A stretch of 64,000 nucleotides of DNA. Origin: Candidatus Doudnabacteria bacterium (GTDB taxonomy: Bacteria; Patescibacteriota; Doudnabacteria; UBA920). A program made the position numbers and the translations under genes. The stretch lies in contig CAVYGQ010000001.1 in the NCBI GenBank assembly GCA_963768175.1, positions 446,305 to 510,304 of the forward strand, read 5' to 3'. Positions 1,502-58,998 of this stretch are shown piece after piece. Numbering within the stretch: the first letter of the stretch is position 1; each line of letters starts with the position of its first letter. The notes beneath the pieces are model-generated. The model did no database searches. It was given only the letters and a program-made list of their open reading frames with translations, and was not told the DNA's origin.

Positions 1502-3355
1502 TTACTTGTTAGCCAAACTTTCCTGGCTCTCCTGGATTTCCAAAAGCTGCTTGGGGTCGGTGGTAATAATCTGGTCTTCCACGTAGGACGCGTAAATTTT
1601 AATGGCCGCGTGTTTTAACCCCGCGAAAAATATCCCCTCGCCAACTTCGCTTTCAAGTAGCAGATATTTTTCGCCTTCGGTTAAAAAGAAAGTCTCGGCA
1701 ACTACGTTTATGGCCGCCGGGCTCTGCTTAAGCAGCATCTGGATGGAAGAGTTGGTAACTATCGGTTTGCCGTAAGGACTGGCCAGAAAATCGGCCACGT
1801 CCTGCGTAATGGTGGTCAAACCAAGATAATATTTGCGGGCGCGCTTGGCAATGCCGAACAGGAACCTCGCGCTGTCTTCGTGCTGCATCAAAATCCAGGC
1901 TTCGTCCACCGCCAAGATGCGCTTTTTAAGCTCTGAGCGCACCATATTCCAAATATAATTTAAAATAATATACATAGCTATAGGCCTTAACTCCTCTTCC
2001 AAATCGCGAATACTAAACACCACCAGCTGGTTGTTCAACACTACATTAGTCTGCTGGTTTAAAAGCCCGCCAAAAGTGCCTTCGGTAAATTTTGTCAGGC
2101 GCTGGCCTAAACTTTCCGCTCCGACCATATTGTTTAAAATTTCCACCAAATCGTTCATAGTCGGATATTCCAGGCCGCGGAAATCCGCCAAATCCGGCGT
2201 GACATCTTTTTTGGCGTAAGTCTGCCAAATCGCCTTATCCATCAGCGCTTCTTCCGTGGGGTTTAGCTTGCCTATCATCAAACTAAACAACCCCAAAAGG
2301 TTAATAACCGCGGTGCGCAAAACGTCGGCGTTGCTTTCACCTTCAATAGCCACAGGGAGGTCAAACGGGTTTATCCGCGAAGCCGAATTCAGCGATACGC
2401 TTAAATAAGTACCACCCACGGCCGCAGCCAAGTGCTGGTATTCGTTTTCCGGATCGACGATAATGACTTCGGTGCCGATCATCAAGCTGCGCAGCACTTC
2501 CAATTTTACGGCATACGATTTTCCGGCACCGGATTTGGCAAACACCACGGAGTTGGCGTTTTCCATGGCAAAACGGTCAAACAAAATCAGGCTGTTGTTG
2601 TGGCGGTTAATGCCGTATAAAATGCCGTCGTTACTGGTTAAATCCGACGACACGAAAGGAAAACAAGAAGACAAGGGGCTGGTATTCATATTGTTGGCTA
2701 CATCCAGTTCGTCCAGCCCGAGTGGCAAAGTGGAATTCAGCCCGTTTTGGGTTTGCATCAACGCGCGCTTGGTCACGATCAATTTGGAACCGAGCGAGCT
2801 CTCCAGGGTGCTGGAAAATTTATCCAGCTCCTTTAAGTCAGTGGCATAAATTGTAAAATACAAAGCAAAACGAAAATACTTTTCGGTACCCTGCATCAGG
2901 TTGTCCCGCAAACCTTCCACGTCTTTGTAGGCGGTCTCCAGCATCGGATCGCGCACCATGCCTTTTTCCTGGTTAATGGCCATCTGGCTACCGAGCTCCC
3001 CGACCTTGCTTTTAAGTTTTTTTAAAATGTCCGCCGAATCTATAGGGTAAATAAACATGGACAAATCCAGCGCGCCTTCGGCCTGGATAATAAAAGACAG
3101 CCAGTTGCTGGAGAGGAACCTTGGATAAGCCAGCACAAAAAAACTCCTGCCGAATTTGCCGTTAAGCTCAAAATGGGAGCTGTCAAATTTCAACGAAGCT
3201 GGGGCTATTAAATCTTTTAGCGTAGTTAAACCTTCGCGGTAGGTTCTGTCCAAATCCCCAAGACTTGAGCTCAAACTACGTTCGGTTTCGGCTTCTTTCA
3301 GGCTTTGTTTTCTTGCTTCCAGCTCTTGGGGAGTGATTTTTGAAAAAATGCTCAT
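1502..3355 (-). CDS. virB4: VirB4/TraC/CagE-family type IV secretion ATPase
   Basis: 617 aa with Walker A FAKSGAGKS and Walker B ILAVDEAW. The N-terminal domain is typical of Gram-positive VirB4 homologues. Confidence 0.8.
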   Translation of the reverse strand: MSIFSKITPQELEARKQSLKEAETERSLSSSLGDLDRTYREGLTTLKDLIAPASLKFDSSHFELNGKFGRSFFVLAYPRFLSSNWLSFIIQAEGALDLSMFIYPIDSADILKKLKSKVGELGSQMAINQEKGMVRDPMLETAYKDVEGLRDNLMQGTEKYFRFALYFTIYATDLKELDKFSSTLESSLGSKLIVTKRALMQTQNGLNSTLPLGLDELDVANNMNTSPLSSCFPFVSSDLTSNDGILYGINRHNNSLILFDRFAMENANSVVFAKSGAGKSYAVKLEVLRSLMIGTEVIIVDPENEYQHLAAAVGGTYLSVSLNSASRINPFDLPVAIEGESNADVLRTAVINLLGLFSLMIGKLNPTEEALMDKAIWQTYAKKDVTPDLADFRGLEYPTMNDLVEILNNMVGAESLGQRLTKFTEGTFGGLLNQQTNVVLNNQLVVFSIRDLEEELRPIAMYIILNYIWNMVRSELKKRILAVDEAWILMQHEDSARFLFGIAKRARKYYLGLTTITQDVADFLASPYGKPIVTNSSIQMLLKQSPAAINVVAETFFLTEGEKYLLLESEVGEGIFFAGLKHAAIKIYASYVEDQIITTDPKQLLEIQESQESLANK

Positions 3356-3362
3356 AAGTTTT

Positions 3363-3565
3363 CCGATTCGGATTTACGGATTGTATCCGGATCAACGGAT
3401 ACCTGCGGATACTTTTTAGTAAGTTTTAAAATTATTTTTGGTTTAAATTATACCAGTTTCTTTTCATAAAACGACCTGCTTTTCTGCTTGCCTCTTATAT
3501 AAGTACCCGTGGTTATCTGTAAATCCGGATTGTCCCATCCGTATATCCGGATCGGGTTTATTCGG
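3363..3565. repeat. MITE-like element, family C (ATCCGGAT-containing arms at 3363..3412 and 3518..3565 are inverted copies of each other)
   Basis: Left arm is cggatttacggattgtatccggat. Right arm is its reverse complement, gtaaatccggattgtcccatccgtatatccggat. A related copy sits inside rsmA at 17587..17697. Confidence 0.55.
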
Positions 3566-4241
3566 AAATTTTAATGTCTTTCATCTGTGCCGGATCAATT
3601 AACGGGGCAGCGTCAAAATTATAGGAATTGTAATACAACTGGATAATCTCCTCGGTCTTTAGCCTGACACCCCTCACGCCAATGCCGGAAAGGTTAGAAA
3701 GTATCGCCATAACCCTTGTGTCCAATTTTTCTTTGGCTTTCTCAAAATTCTCTATTTTTTTGGCAATCTGTTTGGATTTTCCGCCGCCAAAAATGCGGGA
3801 AAAAAATCCTGCGGCGGGGGGAAAAATGCTCTCTCCCAAAGGAATTATGATATAAAAATTTTTATTCATAATGCTGGCGTTCTCAATAAGCCGGGCTATA
3901 AATTCCGTGTACTCAACGGTCTGAACCCTCAAAAGCTCGTTGGTTTGCTTTTCGGCCAATCCCTTGAGCTTTTCCAGGTAACCGCCAATTTCCATTTTGC
4001 GGCTTTGCATAAGAATTTGGACTGAGAAATCCAAGCTGTTTAAAAACCGCTGAAAATTAAAAATAATGGAATCCTGTTCGTCCTGGCTCTTTAAGTCAAA
4101 ATTGGTGCTGGACACGGACAAAATCGCCCTAAGTGTCCCGTCGTCCGCCACCACGGTGTCGTTTTTTATTTCACTAAGCCGTAAAAAACTTTGGGTGGTT
4201 TTTCCCAGCGGCTTTTTCTTGTTTTGCATTTCAAGCTTCAT
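3558..4241 (-). CDS. Hypothetical protein in the T4SS-like cluster
   Basis: The ORF track gives 3558..4298, but its first 19 codons (MAALGAQDDAT...) are the translation of a family-D repeat half copy. The start probably lies at the MKLEMQNKKK methionine. Confidence 0.5.
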   Translation of the reverse strand: MKLEMQNKKKPLGKTTQSFLRLSEIKNDTVVADDGTLRAILSVSSTNFDLKSQDEQDSIIFNFQRFLNSLDFSVQILMQSRKMEIGGYLEKLKGLAEKQTNELLRVQTVEYTEFIARLIENASIMNKNFYIIIPLGESIFPPAAGFFSRIFGGGKSKQIAKKIENFEKAKEKLDTRVMAILSNLSGIGVRGVRLKTEEIIQLYYNSYNFDAAPLIDPAQMKDIKISE

Positions 4242-4268
4242 AGTAATCGCAAATATACAAATAAGAGT

Positions 4269-4313
4269 GGCGTCATCCTGAGCCCCGAGTGCAGCCAAGG
4301 GGCGAAGGATCTC
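4269..4313. repeat. Family D repeat, half copy
   Basis: ggcgtcatcctgagccccgagtgcagccaaggggcgaaggatctc. Confidence 0.6.
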
Positions 4314-4596
4314 AAAATTCAGATGATAAGTCTTTCCATTCCGGGTTTATACTATTAATTAAGTTAATTTTCTTTTGCCTTGTCCAACCCTTTATTCTTT
4401 TCTCTTCCGCGATGGCTTCTAGTGCGGTTCCAAATTCTTTATAATAAACAAGTTTTGTTACATTATACTTTTTCGTAAAACCCTCTACTAACTTATTCTT
4501 ATGCTGATAATTCCTGTTTACGATACTATTGGTTATACCTGTATAAAGAACCGTATGAACTTTATTTGTCATTATGTAAACATAAAACGATTTCAT
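4312..4596 (-). CDS. Small GIY-YIG nuclease-family protein
   Basis: FYVYIMTN...LYTGIT...R...H motif pattern, 94 aa. Confidence 0.7.
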   Translation of the reverse strand: MKSFYVYIMTNKVHTVLYTGITNSIVNRNYQHKNKLVEGFTKKYNVTKLVYYKEFGTALEAIAEEKRIKGWTRQKKINLINSINPEWKDLSSEF

Positions 4597-4708
4597 AGTT
4601 TGAGATGCTTCACTTCGTTCAGCATGACGCCGTGAAATAGAATCACTTTACTCGATTTTTACTGTTATCCATTTTGTATTTTAATTTATTTTTGTATTTT
4701 CGCGATTA

Positions 4709-5155
4709 CTATCTCATTTTCCCCGCAATATCCTGTTCCTCCGAAACAGTTTTTCTTAACAACTCCTGGACTTCTTTTAGATGCGCCTGAGGGTCTTGGG
4801 GGACCGTAGCTTCAGCCTTAACGGGAGAAGAAAGCTGGGCGTCGGACATTTTACCGTTTGGCATCAGGGCGCGCGTTTCTTTATGGAAAATCAAAATCTT
4901 CGGGCTGGTAAAAAACTTTATAAAATTACCAATGCTGTTGTATACCGGCCGTCCGTTAATTTGGACAAAGGCCATGCCTAGAGCCGGCAAGCCAAAAAGC
5001 ACAAACAGGAAAACCGCGACTAAAATGCTCTTGGTGGCGGAAAAGCCCAAAAAAATAACAATGCCGGCGGCAAAAATTATGCCAAACTGTTTTATTGTCA
5101 AAGGCCCAATAATTTTATCTTCCACCTCGGTAAATTGTGGAACTGGAAATTGCAT
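4709..5155 (-). CDS. Small two-TM membrane protein, PrgI/VirB3-like T4SS component (tentative)
   Basis: VEDKIIGPLTIKQ motif followed by two hydrophobic helices. It lies beside virB4. Confidence 0.45.
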   Translation of the reverse strand: MQFPVPQFTEVEDKIIGPLTIKQFGIIFAAGIVIFLGFSATKSILVAVFLFVLFGLPALGMAFVQINGRPVYNSIGNFIKFFTSPKILIFHKETRALMPNGKMSDAQLSSPVKAEATVPQDPQAHLKEVQELLRKTVSEEQDIAGKMR

Positions 5156-5220
5156 AATCTCACTTTAATTATAACACAGACTATCCTTTATCTTTGATCA
5201 ATAAATCGCTCGCTGCACCC

Positions 5221-5364
5221 GGCGTCATTCTGAGGCCTGAATAAATCTGCCTTTCGACTTTGCTCAAGGCACCCTGAGCGAAGCCGAATGGGTGAAGGCC
5301 GAAGAATCTCTTTGCCCTAGATTTTTAGATCCTTCGGTCGGATGCACTCCCTCAGGATGACGCC
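5221..5364. repeat. Family D MITE-like element (long copy)
   Basis: ggcgtcattctgagg ... cctcaggatgacgcc termini. Confidence 0.7.
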
Positions 5365-5455
5365 AATAGAGAATGCTACGTTTAATAATACCCCATCACA
5401 ATCTCTAAATTTAAAGCCATACTTGTCTGCCATGGGTAAAAGATTAAGAATAAAA

Positions 5456-5495
5456 GATGAAGGATGAAGGATGAAGGATGAAGGATGAAGGATGA
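5456..5495. repeat. Heptanucleotide tandem repeat (gatgaag/gaaggat) x about 5.5
   Basis: Direct tandem repeats are visible immediately 3' of the 5498..6376 gene. Confidence 0.8.
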
Positions 5496-5497
5496 TA

Positions 5498-6376
5498 TCA
5501 ACTTGTCTGTATTTTCGCCAACAAATCAGTAAACTTCTCAAACTCCTCTTTGGTCAAATAATCCCCTGTACCCTCGACATCTAAACTTTCAAAGTCGGGT
5601 TGCCCCGAGAGTAATTTTAAACCCGTGTTAATATAATTTTTATAAGTCTGGCTTTTTTCCAAATTAAAAATTACTTCAAAATACCCGTACTTGGCGACTA
5701 ACGACTTAATCTTTTTTGCCAAGGCGTCCAAAGGCCAAGCCTGTAACATCCGGTTTTCAAACACAGCCAGATCCTGCAAGCCGTTTATTGCCTGTCCATT
5801 TGACGCAACCGGCTTTGAAACCGGCGGCTCGTAGGTAGGCTGTTTTTCCAGTGGAAAATCTTGTCCGGGCAATTTTGAAAGGGAACTTGCAAAACTGGGC
5901 TTTTGCTGAAATGTTGACGGCTTTGCGGCTAACGGGGCAAGCGGCACAGCGGATACGGAGGGAAAAACGGTTTTTGGCTTTGGCGACACCGCTGGCGGAA
6001 CTTTTAATACGGGAGAGGCGGGCTTAACGGTCTGGGGGCTGACAAACGGCTTTTCCCTGATTGGAAAAAAAGGTTTTAGAGCCGCAGCCTGCCCTTTTTG
6101 ATCTTGCCTGATAAATGGTTTTTGTTCTATGATCTGTGATTTGTGATCTATGTTCTGTAATTTATGCCCCTCCTCTAACTCTAACTCCGGATGCCCGGGA
6201 GGCAGCTCTTTTTCCTGAAAAATTGATTTTAAATTAGATGCAAAAATTGACGGCTTCTTTTGGGCAAGCGGCTGCTGGATCTGCGAAGTGGTCTTGGGAG
6301 CCTCATATTTTATAGCGGGAATTTGACCGAATTTCCCTAAGTCTGGCAAATTCATTATGTGGCTCAACTTCGGCAT
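5498..6376 (-). CDS. Hypothetical Pro-rich protein
   Basis: 292-aa ORF co-oriented in the cluster. Confidence 0.5.
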   Translation of the reverse strand: MPKLSHIMNLPDLGKFGQIPAIKYEAPKTTSQIQQPLAQKKPSIFASNLKSIFQEKELPPGHPELELEEGHKLQNIDHKSQIIEQKPFIRQDQKGQAAALKPFFPIREKPFVSPQTVKPASPVLKVPPAVSPKPKTVFPSVSAVPLAPLAAKPSTFQQKPSFASSLSKLPGQDFPLEKQPTYEPPVSKPVASNGQAINGLQDLAVFENRMLQAWPLDALAKKIKSLVAKYGYFEVIFNLEKSQTYKNYINTGLKLLSGQPDFESLDVEGTGDYLTKEEFEKFTDLLAKIQTS

Positions 6377-6619
6377 TTAAGTCTTCTGCTCCATTCCCCT
6401 CCTTTCTAAGGAGGGGCTAGGGGAGGTTATTGTCTTAATTGCTGATTGCTTATTACTTACTGCTGACTGCTGACTGCTTGCCAGTATCTTTTCCAGCTCT
6501 CCCAATTGTTTATCGCTCATTGAATCCAAAAGCGCCAGCCATTCCGTCCGCTCCGAGACCGACAAAATTGCCGAAGACCTAACCAACCCTTTAATTTTTT
6601 CTATTTCCGCGATATTCAT
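6377..6619 (-). CDS. Hypothetical small protein with an in-frame family-B repeat (..ITSPSPSLERRGM..)
   Basis: 80-aa ORF. A 42-nt repeat at 6391..6432 lies inside it. Confidence 0.4.
   Translation of the reverse strand: MNIAEIEKIKGLVRSSAILSVSERTEWLALLDSMSDKQLGELEKILASSQQSAVSNKQSAIKTITSPSPSLERRGMEQKT
6391..6432. repeat. Family B palindromic repeat (ccattcccctcctttctaaggaggggctaggggaggttattg)
   Basis: Identical 42-mer at 7231..7272 and a related compound copy at 33652..33728. Hairpin CCCTCCTT/AAGGAGGG. Confidence 0.75.
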
Positions 6620-6740
6620 CTTATATAAAAGCTAAATTCCTATTTGACAAAAATATTAATATAATATATTTAGTTTTACAGAACCACTCCCGCAAGAAGG
6701 CGGGTTTTTTTATCTGGATAGGCTTTTGCTTTAAGTTTCT

Positions 6741-6832
6741 CCATAATTCCTAACTCCTAACTCCTAACTCCTAACTCCTAACTCCTAACTCCTAACTCCT
6801 AACTCCTAACTCCTAACTCCTAACTCCTAACT
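6741..6832. repeat. Heptanucleotide microsatellite (ctaactc/taactcc) x 13
   Basis: Perfect tandem array overlapping the stop codon of the 6827..8185 gene. Confidence 0.9.
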
Positions 6833-8185
6833 TTTAATTCCGTCCTGCGTCTTCTTCCTAAGTTCCTCCAACTTCCGGTCAATTTCCTGCTGCTTAGATT
6901 GTATATTCTGCGGCGCCGGCTTTTTCTCAAGCAAAGGATTTAAAACAAAAGACGAAGGATTTTTACCCTCTACATTTTCATTTGAAATTGCCTGCCCGCC
7001 AACCGCTGGAGCCGAAGGCGACTGCGGGCGGGGAAATTTGTTATTTGGAATTTTCTCTACCCCCTCTCCCATCTTAAGCCCCGCTGTTGTTTCCTCACTC
7101 CGATCCCTGTTCTTCAAAATATTTTGGATGTTCACCCTGCTGGGCATCACGCCGATACCCGTCCTATCTGTCCAATCAGTCTTATCCATCCTATTTTCTT
7201 CAGCAAACACCGGCTTCTGCAACCCCGCACCCATTCCCCTCCTTTCTAAGGAGGGGCTAGGGGAGGTTATTGGGTTGTTGAAAATTCCTTCCGACCTTCC
7301 GATTTCCGATTTCCGACCTTCTGATATTCCGACATCCGACATTCCGACCTTCCGATTCTCCGATGCGTTCTTTGGCACCGGCACTGCGGGCGGCTGCTGA
7401 TTGGTGATAGGTCGTGGAAGCTCATTTGATGACAATTGAAATTTCTGGGATTGCATATAAGGCAAACCCCCCGTAGTTTTCGTCTGTTCGCCTGGCTCTT
7501 CTGGAATAACTGCGGGCCCCGGCGGCGGAAATAGCAGCCAATCGTAAATTTCCAAAATTTGTTTAAGCACTTCCTTGTCGGTGTTATTAAGTTGGCTAGC
7601 TTGCCTATTATTATTGAAAAAATTAATCTGGTTAAACTTGTCCCTATTTACGGTTAAAGGCTGATTTGTATTGTAACTTTTTAACCAATTTTGAATAGTT
7701 GGCTGAACTGCGCCGACATCTAAACTCAAAGGTTTGTCACCCAACTTTTCTTGATTATTTTCTAAAGAATAAATCCAGCCGCGGCGAGTTTCCTTGTCCG
7801 GTCCAACGCGAAATTCATATATCCCTAATATTTTCTTTAGGCATTCGGAAACATTTACGCCCAATTTTATGGAATCGACTAAATTCTCAGACAAAATATT
7901 TTTACTCTGTTTAAGGGACATGGCCGGCATGGCCTTCCAAGAAAGCACCCACAAAACCGCCATTAATTGGTTATAAATTATTGGGTTAGCTTCCACTTGC
8001 CCCTGATTATCCTTTACCAACTTGTCCAATTGATCATAAAATTCCATTGCGCGCCCAGGCTCCAAATCAAACTCCGCGTCTTGAGCTAACTCAGACAATT
8101 TATCTAAAACACGCTGGTCAGCCAAAGCTTCAGCGTCAAGCAAAAATAAATTTTTTATATTCAATATGTCGGCGATACTAGCCAT
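6827..8185 (-). CDS. Hypothetical protein carrying in-frame repeat insertions (family B and TTCCGA tandem repeats)
   Basis: 452-aa ORF. The IGRSEGI.. and PSPSLERRGM segments are encoded by repeats at 7288..7365 and 7231..7272. Confidence 0.5.
   Translation of the reverse strand: MASIADILNIKNLFLLDAEALADQRVLDKLSELAQDAEFDLEPGRAMEFYDQLDKLVKDNQGQVEANPIIYNQLMAVLWVLSWKAMPAMSLKQSKNILSENLVDSIKLGVNVSECLKKILGIYEFRVGPDKETRRGWIYSLENNQEKLGDKPLSLDVGAVQPTIQNWLKSYNTNQPLTVNRDKFNQINFFNNNRQASQLNNTDKEVLKQILEIYDWLLFPPPGPAVIPEEPGEQTKTTGGLPYMQSQKFQLSSNELPRPITNQQPPAVPVPKNASENRKVGMSDVGISEGRKSEIGRSEGIFNNPITSPSPSLERRGMGAGLQKPVFAEENRMDKTDWTDRTGIGVMPSRVNIQNILKNRDRSEETTAGLKMGEGVEKIPNNKFPRPQSPSAPAVGGQAISNENVEGKNPSSFVLNPLLEKKPAPQNIQSKQQEIDRKLEELRKKTQDGIKS
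7231..7272. repeat. Family B palindromic repeat, intragenic in-frame copy
   Basis: Identical to 6391..6432. Confidence 0.75.
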
Positions 8186-8199
8186 AGTTGTTTTTTAAT

Positions 8200-11100
8200 T
8201 TAAATTGGCATCATATGGTCAATAAACAATTTTTCAGCTGCTGCTCTTTGTACCGGGGTCAAAGTTGATAATTTATTACCAGTTGGCAGGCGACCTGCCA
8301 CCGCTGCTATCTTACCAGTTACCTGGGCGGCAAAATCTGCCCTAGTCACTGCACGGCCTGCGATTGTAGCCGCATCAAAGGCGTTGCCTGCCAACGGTTG
8401 TAATTCTTTTCTTAATTCGGATATTTCTACAGGCGTTAACTTATAATCTTCATCTAGTCTACTAATTACGGTCATGGGGTTATATTTTTCCGAGTATTCG
8501 TCCCTAACTTTTTTGTATATTTCGTCCTTGATTGCGGTAACGTGTGTTACTGGCGCACGGGCAGTTGTAAAAGCAGAACGTATGTTTGCTTCTATTGTTG
8601 CCGGAGAACTTGCCCCTCTATAAACAGCATCAATCGCATTATCTATAACCTTACCTCCTCTTAAAGCGTCAGTTTCTTCCTTCTTTAATCCCAAAGTTTT
8701 GCTATCAATCACTTCAGTTGATACGGTCTTAATGACCGGGGTTACTGTTACTGTAGAGTCACCCAAATGAGCAACGGGGGTTGTTTTGCCGGCGGCATCC
8801 AGCTTTACCACCCTAATTCCTTTCACCTCAATAGGTTGCATATTGGTTAACTGCGCATACATGCTACGTACCAAATCCGGATTTTCTTCATACAAACTCT
8901 GGATACGCTTAACGTCAAGATCGTCTTTGACAATAACCGCTCCAGTGTTTTTATCTATATCATCACTTAAAATCCACTCCTTAGTTCTTCCTTGTGAGAA
9001 ACTCGCCTGCTGCAAAGTAGCGCCGTCAAACATAGACAAAACACCCCGTTGATATTCATCAAGCTCCCCACTGGTTCTTCCATACATTTGATCCTTAATT
9101 TCATTTACAGCGTCAATATTTCCACCTGCGTCCAGTTTCGCGCGGAGAGTCACCATATTATGTGGGGCAATTTGCGAGCGGGCACGCCCGCTGACTTTTT
9201 TCAGCTCGCCCACCGCATAATTAGTTTGCCAAGTATTTTTTAGCTTACCTCCCTTAATAGTTCTGCCTCCTACTCCTTTGGCATCGCCAACCAACTCCAT
9301 CCCCCGCTTAAACCTTTTTGAATCATTGTCATAATACGCATGCCCCAGATACTCATAGTGCCCTGTGGACTTGCCAAGTTCTTCAAGATCTTCAGCCATC
9401 AAGCGCTGGGCTTGTTCATCGTCGCCCAAATAACCGTACAAAAACCGGTTTAAAACTTCTGCGCTATAAAAAGTGCCATCGTCATCAGCATACTGGTCTG
9501 CAAAATGCTTTTTCCTAAGTAGGTCGTCCATATATCCTTGTTTGGCAGCTGCCAAGACAATAGCGCGGCGCCTTCTCTTGCCTTCTTCTCCGCCTAACTT
9601 TTCGGCATCTGCGGCCGCATCCATTAAACTTTCTTTACGCATGGTAGAATAGTCCTGAACCAAAGCATTTTCGTCTTTTCTTTCCGCAAATTGCCTATAA
9701 GGAATTTTTAACTTGCCCCTGGTTAAAAACCGTTCTGACATTTCACGCCCGCCTGCCGTAGCCGTGCCTTCTGCTTGATGCTTTAATTCCTCTGCGCGCT
9801 GTTGCCAGCCCTTAAAAAAAGCATCTGGGTTAGAAAGCAAAAATCCGGTTTTTTTCAAAAAGCCCGGTTTATGCTCGCCTTCCTGCTCTAAAAGCGAAGA
9901 ACCAATTTCCTGTCTCTTTCTGTTTACCCAGCCAACTCCTCTTCCAGCCAAAAACGCTGCACCCTGAAACGGAGCAAAGATTCCCTTTCTGGCTATGTCG
10001 GTTATCCCTTGGGCACCGTAGACGCCGGCCAAGGTGGCTACTTTTAAGGAGGCGATTAAAAAAACCAACAATAAAATATTACTTCCCAAGGTCACAATCA
10101 GGCTGGACAAACCGTTTTGTCCATTAAAAATGCTGGCGTTATTGGCCGCAATCTGCAATTGAGAATTGACAGTTGCATTGGTTGCCATTAAAGCTGCCAT
10201 GTTCAGGAAAAAGGCCATTATTGGTGTAAAAAAGGCGTATTTTAAAAACTCCTTCCACCATTTCTCCCTATACTGGGCCGTACTGGGCAAAACCCCAACG
10301 GCATAAGCCACGGGAGAAATCATTAGCAAAAGCCATAACATTACAATCCGGATTACCAAAAACGCCGCAATAGCGCCAAACACGGCAAGCGAGCCCAAGC
10401 TCATAGCCACCCAAAATACAGACGCAACTAATCCTCCAATACTACTATTTACCGCCGATGCGTTAGCGTTCTGCTGCCCTTGGAGGTAGTTCATTAATGT
10501 ACTATTATTTGTAGTCATTAATTTATAAGCCAACCCGTTTACTGACGCAGCGTCGGCAGGCAAAAACTGCGCCTGCACGGTGTCCGCCACGGCTAAAATA
10601 GACTGGCCAATGACCAAACTAAAGTTAATCAGCAAAGCCGCGATAATTAGTTGCACCAATAAATGCCGCGCTTTATAACTTTCCACGCGGAACAACGTGG
10701 CCATGGCAATAATAATCAATGCCACTATAAAAAATATATCGCACAGATTCCGAATGGTTTCCCAACCCGAATAAATAACCGCGACAAAAGTATCCTGATA
10801 AGCGTGAATACCAAGCACAGCAACAATCACTGGTGAAACAAGCAGGAAAAAAATTCCGTAAATAAGCTGCTGAATTGAAGCTAAGACAAAAGCGACTATC
10901 TCGTTTAATAATTGCATCAGCTTGTCGGTTACCCCCGGACCTGCATTGAGATTGTTTCCGGAACCTACGGCGCTGCCATATCCGGGAACGCATCCAGAAG
11001 GTATATTGGCTCCGGTGGTCGGATCGGTACCGGTGCAAGCAAGAGGCGGGCCTGTAACTTTATTGGCGTTTGCCTGGGTGTCATAAAGCTGGACATAAAA

Positions 11101-11850
11101 ACTATTACCACCTTTGAAATAAGTATTATAGGCGTGCGCGCCGGTAAGGGAATTGAAGTCTGTTGATAAATTTTGAAAATCAATTTCGGGGTAAGCATAA
11201 GCCTGGTTCGTTCCGCTATTTGGATCGGTCCCGTTATTAAGTTGGGTTATGCCTAAATCGGTAAAATTGGTCTTATCAATAGTAAATGTGTAATCAAAAA
11301 CAGGCTGCCCGGCTTGAAAGGTTGGGCCGCTAATTTTATTATTACTCTGAGTCGCATCAAAGTAGTTGTTTGGGTTACTGCACACATTGGAAATTAAACC
11401 AGTGCCTATGGGCCCCAATGACTGATTTCCACAAATTTGGGAAGTATTACTAGGCGTTAACACTGCTCCAAAACCTAACAGCTTTCCTGTATCCGGTGTT
11501 CCGCCTGGAGGTGTTGTGGTGCCGATATTAGTACTGTTAAAAGTCAGTGTCGGGGGACTTACAAGGGTAACTATAACCTCTATCGTAGAACTTCCATCCT
11601 GTTGGCCAAGACGAACGAAATTTGTAGTCTGGCCATTAATCTTTATGTCTGTTTTTAAAACTATGTCATTAAAATTACAAGTTTGTGCATTACCTTGGCT
11701 GGTGCCGCAGGTGCTATCAGCGGAAACGGTTATGGGAGTAAGTATCAACAAAACAAAAACCGCTAAAATAAAAGAAAACCACGGCCAGAGGCATTTGGCG
11801 GCAGTTTTGGTTGGGTTGGATTTATTTAAAACTTTTGGTTTCAAATGCAA
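8200..11850 (-). CDS. Giant polytopic membrane protein, VirB6/TrbL-like T4SS channel candidate
   Basis: 1216 aa. N-terminal signal/TM, then about 270 aa Thr/Gly/Asn-rich ectodomain, then about 8 TM helices (residues about 320-640), then about 560 aa charged cytoplasmic tail. Confidence 0.4.
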   Translation of the reverse strand: MHLKPKVLNKSNPTKTAAKCLWPWFSFILAVFVLLILTPITVSADSTCGTSQGNAQTCNFNDIVLKTDIKINGQTTNFVRLGQQDGSSTIEVIVTLVSPPTLTFNSTNIGTTTPPGGTPDTGKLLGFGAVLTPSNTSQICGNQSLGPIGTGLISNVCSNPNNYFDATQSNNKISGPTFQAGQPVFDYTFTIDKTNFTDLGITQLNNGTDPNSGTNQAYAYPEIDFQNLSTDFNSLTGAHAYNTYFKGGNSFYVQLYDTQANANKVTGPPLACTGTDPTTGANIPSGCVPGYGSAVGSGNNLNAGPGVTDKLMQLLNEIVAFVLASIQQLIYGIFFLLVSPVIVAVLGIHAYQDTFVAVIYSGWETIRNLCDIFFIVALIIIAMATLFRVESYKARHLLVQLIIAALLINFSLVIGQSILAVADTVQAQFLPADAASVNGLAYKLMTTNNSTLMNYLQGQQNANASAVNSSIGGLVASVFWVAMSLGSLAVFGAIAAFLVIRIVMLWLLLMISPVAYAVGVLPSTAQYREKWWKEFLKYAFFTPIMAFFLNMAALMATNATVNSQLQIAANNASIFNGQNGLSSLIVTLGSNILLLVFLIASLKVATLAGVYGAQGITDIARKGIFAPFQGAAFLAGRGVGWVNRKRQEIGSSLLEQEGEHKPGFLKKTGFLLSNPDAFFKGWQQRAEELKHQAEGTATAGGREMSERFLTRGKLKIPYRQFAERKDENALVQDYSTMRKESLMDAAADAEKLGGEEGKRRRRAIVLAAAKQGYMDDLLRKKHFADQYADDDGTFYSAEVLNRFLYGYLGDDEQAQRLMAEDLEELGKSTGHYEYLGHAYYDNDSKRFKRGMELVGDAKGVGGRTIKGGKLKNTWQTNYAVGELKKVSGRARSQIAPHNMVTLRAKLDAGGNIDAVNEIKDQMYGRTSGELDEYQRGVLSMFDGATLQQASFSQGRTKEWILSDDIDKNTGAVIVKDDLDVKRIQSLYEENPDLVRSMYAQLTNMQPIEVKGIRVVKLDAAGKTTPVAHLGDSTVTVTPVIKTVSTEVIDSKTLGLKKEETDALRGGKVIDNAIDAVYRGASSPATIEANIRSAFTTARAPVTHVTAIKDEIYKKVRDEYSEKYNPMTVISRLDEDYKLTPVEISELRKELQPLAGNAFDAATIAGRAVTRADFAAQVTGKIAAVAGRLPTGNKLSTLTPVQRAAAEKLFIDHMMPI

Positions 11851-12177
11851 GGGTTTAAAAGTTTACCCCGTTGCATTTTCCTTTCATCAAAATGTCCCTA
11901 ATTTAACAATAACTGGATATATTAAAGGAAAATCTTGATTATTATTGAGACTAAATGCTACCGGGGCTTAATAAACTGGGCTTTTATATTGCGTATTTTC
12001 ACTAAAATTATACCACAAACCCCTAAAACCGCAAAATTTTTGGCTTTGTGGATATTTCCCGGATTTCCGGCTGATTTGATTGCAAAATTCTGTCCGCTTT
12101 CGCCGGAACACCAATTTGGTTCTGCCGGAACAATCAATCTAAAACCCGTCAATCAAATTATGCTGACATAAAAACCC

Positions 12178-12213
12178 CATGTTAGCATAAAATGCGGCCG
12201 CATTTTTTACTAA
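12178..12213. repeat. Family E palindrome (TTAGCATAAAATGCGGCCGCATTTT..), NotI-core hairpin
   Basis: Related copies at 12777..12816 and 47180..47213 flank gene ends. Confidence 0.7.
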
Positions 12214-12224
12214 CAAATTATCAA

Positions 12225-12749
12225 CTAAGACAACCCAAATTTCTTTTTTAAGTCCTTGTCGTTATCCATCTCTTCTACTTTTATTATCCTTATATAGCCG
12301 TCCAGTCCCGTTTCCAATAAATATTTTAAGGCTTCCCGATTTAAAGGATAAGGGTTAATATACACGCTGGCCTGTAATTTGCGGAAGTTGTTCCTTTTAA
12401 GCAAATCTCTTAGCTGATTTCTTTGCTGCTTGGCAGATTCCGGAATGTCAAATACCACCATTCTCCATTTACCGTCCCATTTACCGGCAACGGGCATTTT
12501 GGCTTTCGCCAATAAAATTTCCAGCTCTCCTTTTTTTGTGAGTTGTAAAAATCTCTTGCCATTCTTGCTTACAAATTTTATGGAACCGCGCTTTTTTAAG
12601 TTATAAGCAGCGCTCCTGTAAGAGTTATAACTTCTCCCGAATAAAAATTTACTTCTCAGAGCGTAAGGCGAGAACGCCATCATGGTTCCAACCGTAGCGT
12701 CAAGGGCGAACAAAATAGCATTGATGATTGTCGATTCCTTTTTTGGCAT
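12225..12749 (-). CDS. PaaX-family-like transcriptional regulator (wHTH plus WDGKW..FDIPE..LR..L...F..LQ.SVY core)
   Basis: 174 aa. The motif pattern W.G.W..V.FD.PE..R..R..LR..L...GF..L..SV resembles the PaaX family. Confidence 0.45.
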   Translation of the reverse strand: MPKKESTIINAILFALDATVGTMMAFSPYALRSKFLFGRSYNSYRSAAYNLKKRGSIKFVSKNGKRFLQLTKKGELEILLAKAKMPVAGKWDGKWRMVVFDIPESAKQQRNQLRDLLKRNNFRKLQASVYINPYPLNREALKYLLETGLDGYIRIIKVEEMDNDKDLKKKFGLS

Positions 12750-12776
12750 TTTTATTTCTTACTTGTTAATTGATCT

Positions 12777-12816
12777 AATGTTAGTATAAACTGCGGCCGC
12801 ATTTTATGTCAACACC
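12777..12816. repeat. Family E palindrome
   Basis: atgttagtataaactgcggccgcattttatgtcaac. Confidence 0.65.
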
Positions 12817-12903
12817 CACTTTTTACTTCTGTTTTGGCCCGATAACAAAACCGCCATATTTTTTAGGCGGCTTTGTTAGACTTTTATTTTAATTATTTTA
12901 TTA

Positions 12904-17014: not shown

Positions 17015-17025
17015 TATATCGTAAC

Positions 17026-17099
17026 GGCGTCATTCTTAGGGAGTGCGGCCGACCGAAGAATCTAATGATGAGATTCTTCACTGCGTTCAGGATGACGCC
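17026..17099. repeat. Family D MITE-like element
   Basis: ggcgtcattcttagg...ttcaggatgacgcc. It overlaps the last codons of rsmA. Confidence 0.7.
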
Positions 17100-18013
17100 A
17101 TAATGGTATCGACTAACTCAATCCATTCTTCAATTGAAAGTTCCTGCGGTCTAGCCGCGGGATTTATTTTAAGCTGCGATAAAATTCCAGCGACCGAATT
17201 TTTATCCAGGGCCAAATTATTTACCAGCGTATTGTGGATTTGTTTGCGCTTGCCGGCAAAACAGGCTTTGACAATTTTAAAAAATCTTTTTTCATCCGAC
17301 AAAATGTATTTGGGTTCTTTGAATAAATCTATTTTTACAATCGCGCTGTCCACTTTTGGCGCGGGATAAAAACTTTTAGCTAGAACAGTTTGGACAATTT
17401 CAGGCTGGCCAAACAGCTGTATCGAAATTGCCAAAATGGACAAGTCCCCCGCTTTGGCGCAAATGTTCCTGGCAACTTCTTTTTGGGTAAGTATGGTTAT
17501 ACCGGAAGGTTTTGCTTTTGTGGCCATTAACATTTGCAGAATTTTCCCGGTAATGTAATACGGGATGTTGGCAACAACTTTATAATCCGATCCGGATTTA
17601 CGGATTCTATCCGGATGATCCGGGTAACTACGGATGGCGCGATCTGTAGATATCCGCAGATCCGGATTCTCATCCGCAGATCGGGATCGGAATGCCGCCT
17701 GAAAATCAAACTCCAAAGCATCGGCGATTTCAAAACGGAAATTTTCAGGATAATCTTTTTTTATTGATTTGAGGATCGGGAAAAACTTCGGGTCTTTTTC
17801 CACGCTCAACACAAAGCCGGCTCTCTGGCAGAGCAAACGGGTTAGGTTGCCGATGCCCGGACCAATTTCCAAAACCGCATCATTAGGCGAAACCTCCGCG
17901 GCATCCACAATGTCCTGTAAAACCAAATCGTCAATTAAAAAATTCTGCCCGTAGGTGAAGTTGGATTTGAGGTTATAAGAGCGCAAAAATTTTTTTAATT
18001 GATCGGTATCCAT
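17087..18013 (-). CDS. rsmA: 16S rRNA (adenine1518/1519-N6)-dimethyltransferase RsmA/KsgA with an in-frame repeat-derived insertion of about 25 aa
   Basis: YGQNFL..EIGPGIGNLT..VEKD..NIPY motifs. The extra segment RSRSADENPDLRISTDRAIRSYPDHPDRIRK is encoded by the family C repeat at 17587..17697. Confidence 0.85.
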   Translation of the reverse strand: MDTDQLKKFLRSYNLKSNFTYGQNFLIDDLVLQDIVDAAEVSPNDAVLEIGPGIGNLTRLLCQRAGFVLSVEKDPKFFPILKSIKKDYPENFRFEIADALEFDFQAAFRSRSADENPDLRISTDRAIRSYPDHPDRIRKSGSDYKVVANIPYYITGKILQMLMATKAKPSGITILTQKEVARNICAKAGDLSILAISIQLFGQPEIVQTVLAKSFYPAPKVDSAIVKIDLFKEPKYILSDEKRFFKIVKACFAGKRKQIHNTLVNNLALDKNSVAGILSQLKINPAARPQELSIEEWIELVDTIMASS

Positions 18014-18031: not shown

Positions 18032-18124
18032 GGCGTCATCCTGAGTCCGAATGCATCTGAGGACGAAGGATCTCTATCCAAGAATGAGATCCTTCGGTCG
18101 GATGCACTCCCTCAGGATGACGCC
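18032..18124. repeat. Family D MITE-like element
   Basis: ggcgtcatcctgag...cctcaggatgacgcc. Confidence 0.75.
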
Positions 18125-18131
18125 GGCTCAC

Positions 18132-27752: not shown

Positions 27753-28481
27753 TTAGTAAATTTTTCGCCAGCGTTTAAAAGCTTTAACATCCGAAGAATT
27801 CAAATTAAACCATTCACCCCTCTTCCGTTTAGATGTAAATCTAGTATGCCAGTATTTCTCAATACCATCCATATCGTCTGTTTCTATCTCATGAATCAAT
27901 TTAAACGGTTCCGACCCTAGTAATGTAATGTCTTCTCGACGACGGTTTGCGTCCTTTGCTTTACCAATTTTATAATCTCCATGTTGCTTGCCTAAATAAA
28001 CAAAACCTTTAGATACTAATGGATCCTCAGAGGTCCTGTCTAGATTTTCAAATCCCTCAAAAACTAAATTACATATTTCTACAATGTCCTTATATTTTTT
28101 TTTGTTTTCAACGAATTCAAGAATAGTTTTTGCCAGATTTCTTGTTAAACCAAGTTTTTTATAAAATGTTGCTGAGTTGGGAAAGCTCAAATCATTGTGA
28201 TGTTTAACATCTAAATCACCTCTCGTTGGCCATTTACGCTTTTCACGAATAACAGTTATAAAAATTTCACATAATTGATCATGACTATATTTAGTTTTAT
28301 CAAACTTATTAGGAGTTAATCCTGCTTCACGAACGAGTTCGCCGTAATTAGACCAGTGTTTCATTCGTTCATATCTATTGACATCAGTGTTTTCGTAAAA
28401 GCTTGACTCGCTTGGTGTCTTGCCGTCATTCAACTGAGTATACTTTTGGATTTCCTTTATTATCTCATCTTTTGTAAACAT
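27753..28481 (-). CDS. T5orf172/GIY-YIG-like (DUF4357-type) domain protein
   Basis: C-terminal YKIGKAKD..RR...L.....EPFKLIHEIETDD...IEKYWHTRF...R.RGEWF pattern. Confidence 0.55.
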   Translation of the reverse strand: MFTKDEIIKEIQKYTQLNDGKTPSESSFYENTDVNRYERMKHWSNYGELVREAGLTPNKFDKTKYSHDQLCEIFITVIREKRKWPTRGDLDVKHHNDLSFPNSATFYKKLGLTRNLAKTILEFVENKKKYKDIVEICNLVFEGFENLDRTSEDPLVSKGFVYLGKQHGDYKIGKAKDANRRREDITLLGSEPFKLIHEIETDDMDGIEKYWHTRFTSKRKRGEWFNLNSSDVKAFKRWRKIY

Positions 28482-28531
28482 AAATTATTGAAATTAATTA
28501 CGCACCTCGGTTACTTACTAAAAAAAGTTGA

Positions 28532-28605
28532 TGGCTGGGGTGCCAGGATTCGGACCTGGGATCAGCGGTTCAGAGCCGCTTGCCTTACCGCTTGGCTACA
28601 CCCCA
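28532..28605 (-). tRNA. tRNA-Gln (anticodon CTG), CCA encoded
   Basis: Manual fold. Acceptor TGGGGTG/CACCCCA, D arm GCC-AAGCGGTAA-GGC, anticodon stem AGCGG/CCGCT with loop CTCTGAA, T arm CCAGG-TCCGAAT-CCTGG. 74 nt. Confidence 0.8.
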
Positions 28606-29043
28606 ACGATATCAAAATCTAAAAACTAAACCCTAAATACTAAACTTTAGACAACTGATATATTATAAAATAAATCAGAAAAAAAGAAAAGGGCTCGCTT
28701 TTGCCTGTATTCCTAAATAGTGATAAAATAAGATTAGGTTTTAAAGGCGTTCCGAAATCAAAATGTTCAAAATCCTAAAAATCGTGTTTTATATTGTCAT
28801 TGTTATAGTTGTTGTGTTTTTATATTGGTTTTTGCCCAAGTATTCCTATGTCAGCAAAAACCCAGGATATTGCACCCAATTAACCAGCCATCTGTACTAC
28901 TGCGGAAACATAGGTAGCATGGACAAGCTTATGGGTGGCGGCAAATAATTGACACGGGTTTTTTGGGATTGTATAATAAAATTGCCCTTAAACCCAAGCG
29001 AAACAAAATTTACCCTGTTAAATAATTTTAAATTTTTTCTCCA

Positions 29044-29316
29044 ATGCAATATGTCTATATTTTGCAGTCAGAAAAGGACAAAAAATTTTATACAGGGTAT
29101 ACAAAAAATTTAAAATTAAGATTTGAGCAACATAAGAAGGGCCAAGTTAAATCAACTAACGATCGCAGGCCGCTTAAACTAATTTACCATGAAGCGTGCT
29201 TAAACCAGCAAGATGCTACCCATCGCGAAAAGTACCTAAAAACCTACCTTGGAAAAATGTTTATTAAAAAACGGCTCAAATCTTATTTCAACCTGTTAAA
29301 TAGTTTCACTTTGTGA
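29044..29316 (+). CDS. Small GIY-YIG nuclease-family protein (second paralogue)
   Basis: YVYILQS...KFYTGYTKNLKLRFEQHKKG. Confidence 0.65.
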   Translation: MQYVYILQSEKDKKFYTGYTKNLKLRFEQHKKGQVKSTNDRRPLKLIYHEACLNQQDATHREKYLKTYLGKMFIKKRLKSYFNLLNSFTL

Positions 29317-29343
29317 AAATTTAACAGGTTTAACAGGGTAAAA

Positions 29344-29889
29344 ATGTCAAAACTCTCTCCACAAACAAAAACTTTCATCGCCCTTTTTTGTTTTGCCGTT
29401 TTTGGAACGTATGTGTGTATAATTCTTTGGTCCAATTTGGCCGGATCTGTTCCCAACACGTCCTACAACACAAACACCCTGACAAAAAAAGTCTCGGCCC
29501 AAACTTTACCCGCTTTGGTTCCAGTCCCCGCAGTGGACACGACCGGATGGAATACATACAACAATGAACAATACCAATTAAGTTTTTTATATAAACCAGG
29601 CTGGAAAGTTTTACCGGCTATAAATAAAAATGGCTTTACGGTTTTGCAGGTAGACCCGGGACCAAAATTTTACAATATTAAAATTTACATCAACCCCAAA
29701 GAATTTTACATTATGGATGGCCTGCCCACCAAGACCGAAACCATTGGCGGCCAAACGGCTCTAAATGCCAACAACTCGCTGTATGGGATTGTGGCGAACA
29801 ATTTGCACTATACTTTTGACGTAGGCCTGTCCATGAGCCTGGTGCCGGATTTTAACGCTTTGGTGCATTCGGTAAAATTTGGGAATTAG
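29344..29889 (+). CDS. Hypothetical membrane-anchored protein
   Basis: 181-aa ORF with an N-terminal TM. Confidence 0.5.
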   Translation: MSKLSPQTKTFIALFCFAVFGTYVCIILWSNLAGSVPNTSYNTNTLTKKVSAQTLPALVPVPAVDTTGWNTYNNEQYQLSFLYKPGWKVLPAINKNGFTVLQVDPGPKFYNIKIYINPKEFYIMDGLPTKTETIGGQTALNANNSLYGIVANNLHYTFDVGLSMSLVPDFNALVHSVKFGN

Positions 29890-29897
29890 TGGAAAAA

Positions 29898-29928
29898 CAG
29901 GGGACACCTCTGGAAGAGGTGTCCCCTG
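29898..29928. terminator. Family A palindrome (CAGGGGACACCTCT ggaag AGGTGTCCCCTG) acting as a hairpin after the gene end, followed by TTTTC
   Basis: Perfect 14-bp inverted repeat directly after the stop at 29889. Confidence 0.55.
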
Positions 29929-29938
29929 TTTTCATTGA

Positions 29939-30115
29939 TTACTGTTTTTTATTTATACCAACGACTATCCCCCAAAAACCAAAAACCAGGCTGGCAAACA
30001 AATAACCTCCTGGCAGACTGACGATATTGGGGAAAGCAAAACCGCAAAATCCCACAAGAAATAAAATTACTCCGGTTACTAAACTGTATGAACGGGGGTT
30101 GTTAAGTTTAATCAT
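29939..30115 (-). CDS. Possible 58-aa two-TM small membrane protein (below the ORF-track size cutoff)
   Basis: Manual translation gives MIKLNNPRSYSLVTGVILFLVGFCGFAFPNIVSLPGGYLFASLVFGFWGIVVGINKKQ. Confidence 0.3.
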   Translation of the reverse strand: MIKLNNPRSYSLVTGVILFLVGFCGFAFPNIVSLPGGYLFASLVFGFWGIVVGINKKQ

Positions 30116-32336: not shown

Positions 32337-32343
32337 AATACAA

Positions 32344-32380
32344 CAAAGAGACTCTTTGCGCGACGCAAAGAGTCTCTTTG
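32344..32380. terminator. Family F hairpin (CAAAGAGACTCTTTGCGC / GCGCAAAGAGTCTCTTTG)
   Basis: Inverted repeat after the hppA stop. A second copy after glnII at 49206..49242. Confidence 0.6.
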
Positions 32381-32467
32381 TATAACTATTTTATATAAAT
32401 AAAAAACGAGCGGCTACAGTGACGCAGTCGCCCGGGGTGGCCAGCCCCATAAGTAATAGCCAATGCT

Positions 32468-33028: not shown

Positions 33029-33145
33029 GGTGTTTCCCCCTTTGAAACAAAAGTCCGCCAGATTCAGCAAAACAACCGCCACCCATACTGGCATAGGGTT
33101 AGCATTAAAAAATATCAAAAAAAGACCTTTATGTCAAGGGCTCAA

Positions 33146-33208
33146 AGCTGGAAGAAGTGTCCCCTCTTCCAGTTTAATTTTATGGTATAATAAACAATTT
33201 TTACACAA
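33146..33208. repeat. Family A element, extended 63-nt form (hairpin CTGGAAGAaGTGTCCCCTCTTCCAG plus tttaattttatggtataataaa)
   Basis: Near-identical 63-mer at 41120..41182. Both lie immediately 3' of minus-strand genes and contain TGnTATAAT-like boxes. Confidence 0.65.
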
Positions 33209-41066: not shown

Positions 41067-41119
41067 AAAAAAATACCTTTGACACTATAAGTATATCCAA
41101 GAATGGGCTTTTTTACAAA

Positions 41120-41182
41120 CTGGAAGAGGTGTCCCCTCTTCCAGTTTAATTTTATGATATAATAAATAATTTTTACGCCAAC
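41120..41182. repeat. Family A element, extended form (second copy)
   Basis: ctggaagaggtgtcccctcttccagtttaattttatgatataataaataatttttacgcc. Confidence 0.65.
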
Positions 41183-47163: not shown

Positions 47164-47179
47164 GCTTACTAAAAAATTT

Positions 47180-47213
47180 GTTAGCATAAAATGCGGCCGC
47201 ATTTTATGCTAAC
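47180..47213. terminator. Family E perfect palindrome GTTAGCATAAAATGCGGCCGCATTTTATGCTAAC after the kinase gene
   Basis: 34-nt perfect inverted repeat, 17 nt after the stop. Confidence 0.5.
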
Positions 47214-47339
47214 AGTCCTGTTTAACAAATATTATAAACGCCGTGGCAGGTGTTTTTTTGTTTTGACCAAAACTATTATCAAGAATACAATAAACGTATG
47301 TTGGCCTTCTGGCCAGCAATACATCGCTAGCTGATGCTA

Positions 47340-49193: not shown

Positions 49194-49205
49194 AATAACC
49201 AATTA

Positions 49206-49242
49206 ACAAAGAGACTCTTTGCACTGCGCAAAGAGTCTCTTT
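49206..49242. terminator. Family F hairpin CAAAGAGACTCTTTGCACTGCGCAAAGAGTCTCTTTG followed by TTTTTTT. Bidirectional between glnII and proA
   Basis: Inverted repeat plus U-tract. Confidence 0.75.
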
Positions 49243-49253
49243 GTTTTTTTAAT

Positions 49254-58906: not shown

Positions 58907-58998
58907 GGCGTCATCCTGAGGAGTGCAGCCGACGAAGGATCTCGTCTGAGGTTAATAGATTCTTCGCCCTCAGATGCATTCGGGCTCAGAATGACGCC
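58907..58998. repeat. Family D MITE-like element in the bshB-bshA intergenic spacer
   Basis: gggcgtcatcctgag...ctcagaatgacgcc. Confidence 0.75.

Follow-up and report, generated by a model that had tools for sequence, protein, structure and literature searches.

Repeat family B, a short dispersed element in a 64,000-nt stretch of the genome of a Candidatus Doudnabacteria bacterium (Patescibacteriota; contig CAVYGQ010000001.1), is probably, judging from its sequence, a class II purine-motif intrastrand triplex motif of the BoxC/PIT/TMECO kind, which would spread as DNA and be translated as a by-product. We refer to the whole stretch that was analysed as the window, and positions are those of the window unless a locus handle is given. 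Read on the G-rich strand, the unit (31-42 nt) consists of a C-rich (pyrimidine) arm, a loop of 3-5 nt, a complementary G-rich arm, the trinucleotide YTA, and a mirror-image G-rich arm. This is the segment order of a class II purine-motif intrastrand triplex, and it is present in all five window copies and in at least 120 genome matches. In a single-stranded DNA hairpin, the last arm may be taken up into the major groove, where it would form G·G-C, A·A-T, and T·A-T triples.

We found five perfect triplex motifs in the window (Table 1), compared to none or one in each of 30 window shuffles, and all five lie inside open reading frames (ORFs). In every copy, the antiparallel mirror arm follows the code of G·G-C and A·A-T or T·A-T perfectly over 8-9 positions. 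The second loops read CTA, CTA, TTA, CTA, and TTA in copies 1 to 5, and are thus of the TTA type that is also found in TMECO; among the other motifs in the fetched loci, this loop is TTA, TTG, CTG, or CCG. The hairpins of the window copies are stable (9-10 bp, z-scores of -2.3 to -4; ViennaRNA, whose Watson-Crick fold pairs the hairpin alone and leaves the third arm free). For copies 1 and 2, the DNA fold is a 9-bp hairpin followed by an unpaired third arm, which has a T where the stem has an A-T pair.

Copies 1 and 2 share the 33-nt sequence CCCCTCCTTTCTAAGGAGGGGCTAGGGGAGGTT and lie within two 42-mers at 6391-6432 and 7231-7272 (+), 840 bp apart. The initial annotation, made from the sequence alone, had reported that these 42-mers are identical and encode one and the same peptide in two minus-strand ORFs, which we confirmed: they are located in ORFs 6377-6619 (80 aa) and 6827-8185 (452 aa), and both encode ITSPSPSLERRGM. 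Their 31-nt core has two exact matches in the window, with 0 expected (100 shuffles). The repeat had also been described as a palindromic element. The hairpin is indeed there, but the element is not just a palindrome, since a mirror-image third arm follows the hairpin and makes it an intrastrand triplex motif.

Mirror symmetry of the third arm

We scanned viral contigs for the hairpin and the NTA behind it, with the third arm left unconstrained in the patterns. For CCTCCCC-N7-GGGGAGG-NTA, a perfect mirror arm (GG(T/A)GGGG) followed in 13 of 47 matches and a direct repeat in 2, and for CCCCTCC-N7-GGAGGGG-NTA, the mirror arm (GGGG(A/T)GG) followed in 21 of 72 matches and a direct repeat in none. 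We also scanned genomes, one per species, with the full pattern from which the eighth stem position had been left out, and obtained about 125 motif matches in at least 120 stretches. At position 8 of these matches, a C-G pair is accompanied by a third-arm G in 76 out of 76 instances and a T-A pair by a T in 42 out of 43 (Fisher, p=1.6e-31); a further count across more than 120 matches gives 79 out of 79 and 43 out of 45, respectively. This association is seen alike in loci of low, mid, and high GC content and does not extend to other flank positions, which excludes base composition as the cause of the covariation. At position 9, a T-A pair is matched by T or A, both of which are permitted by the purine-motif code. 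Across the sequences scanned, the third arm tracks the hairpin as a mirror and not as a direct repeat.

The alternative that fares best against these observations, although we consider it unlikely, is that family B is an ordinary REP- or MITE-like hairpin that acts in RNA, either by stabilising the mRNA or by serving as a terminator, with the extra G-rich arm being incidental. The stable hairpins would fit this explanation, as would the intergenic location of most genome copies and the position of the motif in phage contigs, where it directly follows the terminase and major head genes at places where a terminator is expected. However, such a hairpin predicts no mirror third arm that covaries with the purine arm position by position, and the T-run after the hairpin is absent. 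In E. coli, PIT/BoxC elements have neither promoter nor terminator activity and are associated with local genome instability (PMC4666352). At the gathering threshold, Rfam matched only two tRNAs in the whole window and no family that corresponds to the repeat. In addition, no GTAG/CGTC REP tag was seen by eye beside the hairpin in the flanks of the five window copies (no motif scan was made, and the ~125 genome matches are unchecked); these flanks are CCATT and ATTG for the 42-mers, AGATT and AATAA for the plus-strand mnmA unit, and GTTT and AT for the copy at 46187-46221.

It is quite improbable that the G-runs, within a single unit or across an inverted pair, instead form a G-quadruplex, or an equilibrium of triplex and G-quadruplex. 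Each unit contains GG/GGGG/GGGG/GG tracts, and in vitro, K+ determines whether related archaeal repeats adopt an antiparallel triplex or a G-quadruplex (PMC8044849). However, a G-quadruplex does not need the complementary C-rich arm, leaves unexplained why a T or A in the third arm matches a T-A stem pair, and would have two tetrads at best, given one run of at least four Gs per arm segment.

We regard as very unlikely a third possibility, in which the C-rich strand is the active one and forms a pyrimidine-motif triplex (C+·G-C, T/U·A-T), possibly in mRNA. A G/C-rich class II motif always implies a class III/IV motif on the other strand, and pyrimidine-type triplexes can form in RNA (PMC4666352); four of the five window copies (1, 2, 3, and 5) have a C-rich sense strand. 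What disfavours this possibility is that the third base opposite an A-T pair is mostly T on the G-rich strand (42 of 43 at position 8, about half at the core A), and this T becomes an A on the C-rich strand, which is forbidden by the pyrimidine motif. Moreover, cytosine protonation would be required, and a hand tally of Pfam-checked in-frame copies gave about 11 antisense versus 6 sense, a bias that is not significant.

The inverted pair in mnmA and copies in other genes

The mnmA gene of the window contains copies 3 and 4 as an inverted pair of 79 nt that jointly encodes LLPPLTPPLQGGESAVIPPLAKGRLGG in MnmA (insert peptide stretch PPLTPPLQGGESAVIPPLAKGR). The compound copy proposed for this gene in the initial annotation is therefore real, and is described more exactly as two units on opposite strands. 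Five close orthologues (P0001-P0005) share this insert. Using a codon alignment of these five sequences, which are mutually 76-86% identical, we compared synonymous variation in amino-acid-invariant columns only. Outside the insert, 177 out of 239 columns vary, compared to 1 out of 14 in the arms (p=6.6e-7), and the same pattern is seen for Pro and Gly codons alone (28 out of 31 outside versus 1 out of 10 in the arms, p=5.7e-6). The sole change in the arms, GGT to GGA, replaces T by A in the third arm opposite an A-T pair and is triplex-neutral; in the third arm of copy 4, which has a T opposite an A-T pair, orthologue P0003 has an A. The loops and linkers of the insert vary among the orthologues. 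The arms of mnmA are constrained beyond the protein code, by fold selection or by homogenisation among copies: with the genetic code as an internal yardstick, their frozen synonymous sites are direct evidence of a constraint on the DNA sequence.

These data leave hardly any room for selection on the peptide (a PPLxxGG/SPSPSLxRRG module) with the DNA similarity being secondary. Such selection would account for the presence of ITSPSPSLERRGM in two proteins and for the conservation of the MnmA insert peptide in the five orthologues, but the arm synonymous sites are frozen where the rest of mnmA varies, the DNA of the motif is translated in more than one frame and orientation, most copies are intergenic, and the motif is common to unrelated phyla and phages.

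The MnmA insert is positioned in the first beta-hairpin of the PRC-barrel domain. In a structure comparison, MnmA residues 234-257 face 2 residues of E. coli 2der and are extra relative to solved structures, and in an AlphaFold model of MnmA (weak, mean pLDDT 63) the insert is a low-confidence coil between two strands. It replaces an ancestral 5-residue DQxGK turn, with flanks that are 70-80% conserved. The view that this segment is extra was borne out by the orthologue alignment: 69 of the 120 closest MnmA homologues have no insert at this loop, and the other 51 have more than 8 extra residues there, with at least 11 of these being of the triplex-motif type. Among 25 close orthologues, 8 have no insert. 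Other repeats at the same loop include a single C7TT-type triplex unit (P0031) and a triple unit (P0012), the arms of which (CCTCTCCTT/AAGGAGAGG/GGTGAGGTT) are near those of E. coli BoxC (CCCTCTCCC/GGGAGAGGG/GGGTGAGGG). An assembly duplication was rejected as the origin of the repeat, since the mnmA insert recurs in four other independent assemblies. As had been suggested, the reading frame is kept in every case, and for both MnmA and the 452-aa protein there are orthologues with and without the element. We also observed that many inserts at the MnmA loop belong to a different type of repeat, apparently another palindromic family (with peptides such as SLRGAP..RRGN..ALAMT), and that three more sites in MnmA are variable, in part with PSPxGGG-type peptides.

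The 452-aa ORF that hosts copy 2 is, on the evidence of sequence comparison, a real gene. Among its homologues, the N-terminal domain and the C-terminal IDxKLEELKKK are conserved, and the element lies in a variable Pro-rich linker; a peptide similar to the element was found only in P0130, a distant homologue. The 80-aa ORF that hosts copy 1 had been taken for a gene of its own, which did not hold up: it is the N-terminal piece of a gene that forms one 445-aa ORF in a relative (L240:4554-5891). In the window, the two pieces are separated by a TAA at 6377-6379 with an ATG directly after it, and copy 1 lies in a shortened linker just upstream of this TAA, close to the end of the 80-aa ORF. L240 has WQ-M versus T-stop-M in the window, which would fit a CAA-to-TAA change. 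The interruption may reflect coupled restart in a split gene, a pseudogene, or an error. Copy 5 provides residues 10-20 of a PfkB-kinase ORF (46162-47163), in the first 21 codons and ahead of the Pfam PfkB match, and is either an N-terminal extension of the kinase or, if the in-frame TTG at 46228 is the start, part of the 5' untranslated region.

Table 1. Copies of repeat family B in the window, their host genes, neighbouring genes, and motifs in phage contigs.
Feature	Position	Strand	Description	Encoded peptide
Copy 1	6396-6428	+	33 nt, inside 42-mer 6391-6432; Y arm CCCCTCCTT 6396-6404, loop TCT, R arm AAGGAGGGG 6408-6416, linker CTA, third arm GGGGAGGTT 6420-6428	TSPSPSLERRG (minus strand)
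Copy 2	7236-7268	+	Identical to copy 1; inside 42-mer 7231-7272	
Copy 3	33695-33726	+	CCCCTCCT tgcag AGGAGGGG tta GGGGAGGT; upstream half of mnmA insert	PPLTPPLQGGE (minus strand)
Copy 4	33648-33680	-	CCTCCCCTT gca AAGGGGAGG cta GGTGGGGTT; downstream half of mnmA insert	IPPLAKGRLGGV
Copy 5	46187-46221	-	CCCCCTCTTA atg TAAGAGGGGG tta GGGGGTGAT; new, by structure-aware scan	HPLTPSYIKRG
mnmA (tRNA 2-thiouridylase)	33201-34427	-	Host of inverted pair; insert at residues about 233-259	
Conserved hypothetical protein, 452 aa	6827-8185	-	Host of copy 2; 12 homologues	
Split gene	5498-6619	-	Host of copy 1; 80-aa ORF 6377-6619 and 292-aa ORF 5498-6376, same frame	
TraG P-loop ATPase	1502-3355		Type IV secretion-like cluster	
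TrbL/VirB6-like membrane protein, 1216 aa	8200-11850		Type IV secretion-like cluster	
Phage-contig motifs, L145	3636-3666, 7000-7030		IMG/VR	
Phage-contig motifs, L196	2926-2966, 8287-8327		IMG/VR	

Both 42-mers lie inside a type IV secretion-like cluster (1502-11850), and L240 has TraC-like and TraG genes in the same order as the window. Several tandem repeats are found in this region. The heptanucleotide TAACTCC is repeated ~13 times at 6744-6834, beginning past the stop of the 452-aa ORF and overlapping its 3' end by a few bases, and short tandem repeats of the GGATGAA, CTGACTG, and TCCGAYNT type surround the 42-mers (5434-5489, 6436-6484, and 7290-7365), the last type being translated as SDVGISEGRKSEIGRSEG.

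Distribution and possible route of spread

The genome scan detected the motif in Planctomycetota, Nitrospirota, Omnitrophota, Poribacteria, Chloroflexota, Chlamydiae, Spirochaetes, Desulfobacterota, Proteobacteria, and several Patescibacteria lineages. Counting a motif as genic when it is spanned by an ORF with at least 50 codons on each side, we found 35 of 128 genome matches in long ORFs, compared to 418 of 600 random positions. For this reason, the motif family is mainly intergenic and a genic location is the exception. The initial annotation had stated that the element colonises coding DNA, which is correct in that copies lie in-frame inside real genes, but this is not the habit of the family, in which they are a minority.

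Pfam-confirmed in-frame hosts in several phyla include RarA/MgsA, Lgt, MnmA (at a different site), SecA, and a ThiL-like AIRS protein, as well as a GT4 glycosyltransferase, YfhO, and a TPR/macroglobulin protein, with the motif lying inside or between the Pfam domains. RarA/MgsA has inserts at the same place in Patescibacteria and Planctomycetota (L009 2453-2483 and L010 2409-2439), inside AAA_assoc_2 just before MgsA_C and in opposite reading orientations. On each strand, two of the three frames are open and the third is stopped by TAG or TAA in the linker, and the peptides differ with the frame and orientation in which the motif is translated (TSPSPSL.RRG, PPLTPP..GGE, PLLSKEGLGEV, and SPPLQGGARGG). 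Motifs are also present in IMG/VR phage contigs, between terminase, portal, and major head genes, and some of these are four-armed, with a third arm on both strands. It is possible that such phage modules offer a vehicle between lineages.

In metagenomes, the exact 33-mer has 3 matches, all with other flanks and contexts. The 9 extra nucleotides of the 42-mers are therefore private to the two window copies and would mark one 42-mer as a recent local copy of the other. We propose that the element spreads or is copied as DNA, most likely by a single-stranded DNA route that recognises the fold. In a gene-dense genome, the surviving copies would be those that hit a stop-free frame (four exist), add a multiple of three bases, and fall into surface loops or disordered linkers. 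The Pro/Gly-rich peptides that they encode there (PPLxxGG, SPSPSLxRRG) would be a by-product of translation that is tolerated. More tentatively, and with doubts that we consider substantial, the triplex motifs might constitute a fold-coded dispersed family that is bacteria-wide, carried by phages, and copied by a fold-recognising single-stranded DNA mechanism, and that gives rise to dual-coding (peptide and selected DNA fold) Pro/Gly-rich loops in essential proteins of gene-dense genomes.

It is important to point out that several observations weigh against a triplex motif that spreads as DNA. Triplex folding is deduced here from sequence rules and was not observed, and the E. coli BoxC triplex forms in vitro as single-stranded DNA, while in vivo dimethyl sulfate footprinting did not detect it (PMC4666352). 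The direct-repeat control of our general motif finder was not clean (37 direct versus 77 mirror matches) because G-runs tolerate register shifts, and it was replaced by the position-8 test and the viral-contig scans. No transposase, Y1_Tnp (RAYT), or HUH domain was found in the 43 window ORFs scanned, the window covering 64 kb of a contig of about 949 kb, and Holder et al. likewise found no mobility genes linked to BoxC (PMC4666352). At mnmA, neither a target-site duplication nor a clean empty site could be defined. Furthermore, we infer translation of the inserts from frame conservation, and gene conversion among genomic copies, rather than fold selection, could be the source of the arm conservation.

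BoxC/PIT has been known for decades, with its function and spreading mechanism unassigned, and has been described as strictly intergenic; here, we find such motifs inside essential genes. If the proposal of a fold-coded, dual-coding family is true, the question of BoxC function becomes addressable by comparative genomics. In addition, much of the variation in protein length among Patescibacteria may come from small structured repeats, a source that has been overlooked, and they also give spurious 'low-complexity' regions in annotation.

Other repeats and possible islands were observed in the window. Inverted repeats of 60 nt (12169-12228 and 12766-12825) on the palindrome TGTTAGCATAAAATGCGGCCGCATTTTATGCTAACA flank a 174-aa ORF with a PaaX/Cas2-like domain (12225-12749), and a third copy of this palindrome is found at 47179-47214 (within 47165-47214); this arrangement resembles a small cassette. 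A further family of dispersed palindromes, GGCGTCATCCTGAG...GAAGGATCT, has at least 7 copies (1312-1351, 5325-5364, 17025-17108, 18032-18125, and 58957-58998) and is probably the family A of the initial annotation. GC-rich palindromes (AGAGGTGTCCCCTCT..., AACAAAGAGACTCTTTGCG...) recur at gene ends (312-349, 29910-29930, 33145-33204, 41117-41176, and 46805-46847; also 32337-32396 and 49205-49259) and probably serve as terminator or promoter modules; 60 nt, including a downstream AT-rich stretch, are common to two of them. An ORF with a T5orf172/MUG113 domain (27753-28605) adjoins a tRNA gene, and the lowest GC content of the window (0.365) is found at 28000-30000. This region may be a small mobile island.

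Comparison with known repeat systems

The G-rich/C-rich repeats of Methanomicrobiaceae resemble family B in being dispersed and in combining a GC hairpin and a third strand rich in G that forms an antiparallel triplex in vitro (PMC8044849). They differ in that the G-rich third strand is at the 5' end (class I-like), in being archaeal and all intergenic, and in their equilibrium with a G-quadruplex (PMC8044849). REP/REPIN sequences are likewise short (20-40 bp) GC-rich hairpins that often form inverted pairs, but they have no third arm and are extragenic by definition; they are mobilised by RAYT (Y1 HUH) transposases and are thought to be handled as single-stranded DNA (PMC3733652, PMC3116915). 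Because of this presumed single-stranded handling, REPs are a plausible model for the spread of a fold-defined repeat.

Rickettsia palindromic elements (RPEs) were reportedly described by Ogata et al. in 2000. Like family B, they are palindromic and selfish-looking and lie in-frame in unrelated housekeeping genes, where they encode fold-compatible peptides, whereas they differ in being about 100-150 bp long, restricted to Rickettsia, and plain long hairpins (PMC10969869). Family B, with its unit of 31-42 bp and its mirror third arm, occurs in many phyla, is mostly intergenic outside gene-dense genomes, and fits RPEs in neither size nor host. What it does share with them is the in-frame position in unrelated protein genes, namely those for MnmA, the 452-aa protein, RarA, Lgt, SecA, and the ThiL-like protein.

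BoxC is said to go back to work by Bachellier in the 1990s, and the PIT element to that of Hoyne and Maher in 2000 and 2002. Hoyne and Maher found BoxC anew as the PIT element, and it has been renamed TMECO (Holder et al. 2015, PMC4666352). TMECO has the pattern CCCTCNCCC-N3-6-GGGNGAGGG-N3-GGGNGAGGG, a class II purine-motif intrastrand triplex with TTA (type A) or CCG (type B) as the second loop, and a TMECO oligonucleotide forms a triplex in vitro (PMC4666352). Inverted pairs make up 5 of the 18 BoxC loci of MG1655, and G/C-rich triplex motifs have been noted in cyanobacteria, Thermus, Neisseria, and others (PMC4666352). In E. coli, BoxC is 'always located intergenically' and 'not associated with transposons, phages or plasmids' (PMC4666352).

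Compared to BoxC with its 9-mer CCCTCNCCC, the arms of family B are CCCCTCC(TT), CCTCCCC(TT), or CCCCCTC and 7-10 nt long. The window arms (CCCCTCCTT, CCTCCCCTT, CCCCTCCT, and CCCCCTCTTA) do not match the TMECO consensus, and only the copy in orthologue P0012 approaches the BoxC arms. Because the arms differ, the window element is outside the E. coli consensus family. The hosts differ as well, with BoxC in E. coli and other Proteobacteria versus family B in Patescibacteria and many non-proteobacterial phyla, as does the location, since family B is not confined to intergenic sites and has in-frame genic copies and copies in phage structural modules. A literature search with the exact core string on both strands found no paper, and no relevant work was found that connects the Candidate Phyla Radiation or Patescibacteria to palindromic, MITE-like, or in-frame elements. 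To the extent that the literature could be searched, four features are new: the genic copies in-frame, the constraint on synonymous sites, the range of phyla, and the presence in phage contigs. With BoxC/PIT/TMECO, family B shares the strand order, the triple code including T or A opposite A-T, the TTA-type second loop, the occurrence as singles and inverted pairs, the high identity among copies, and the absence of a linked transposase.

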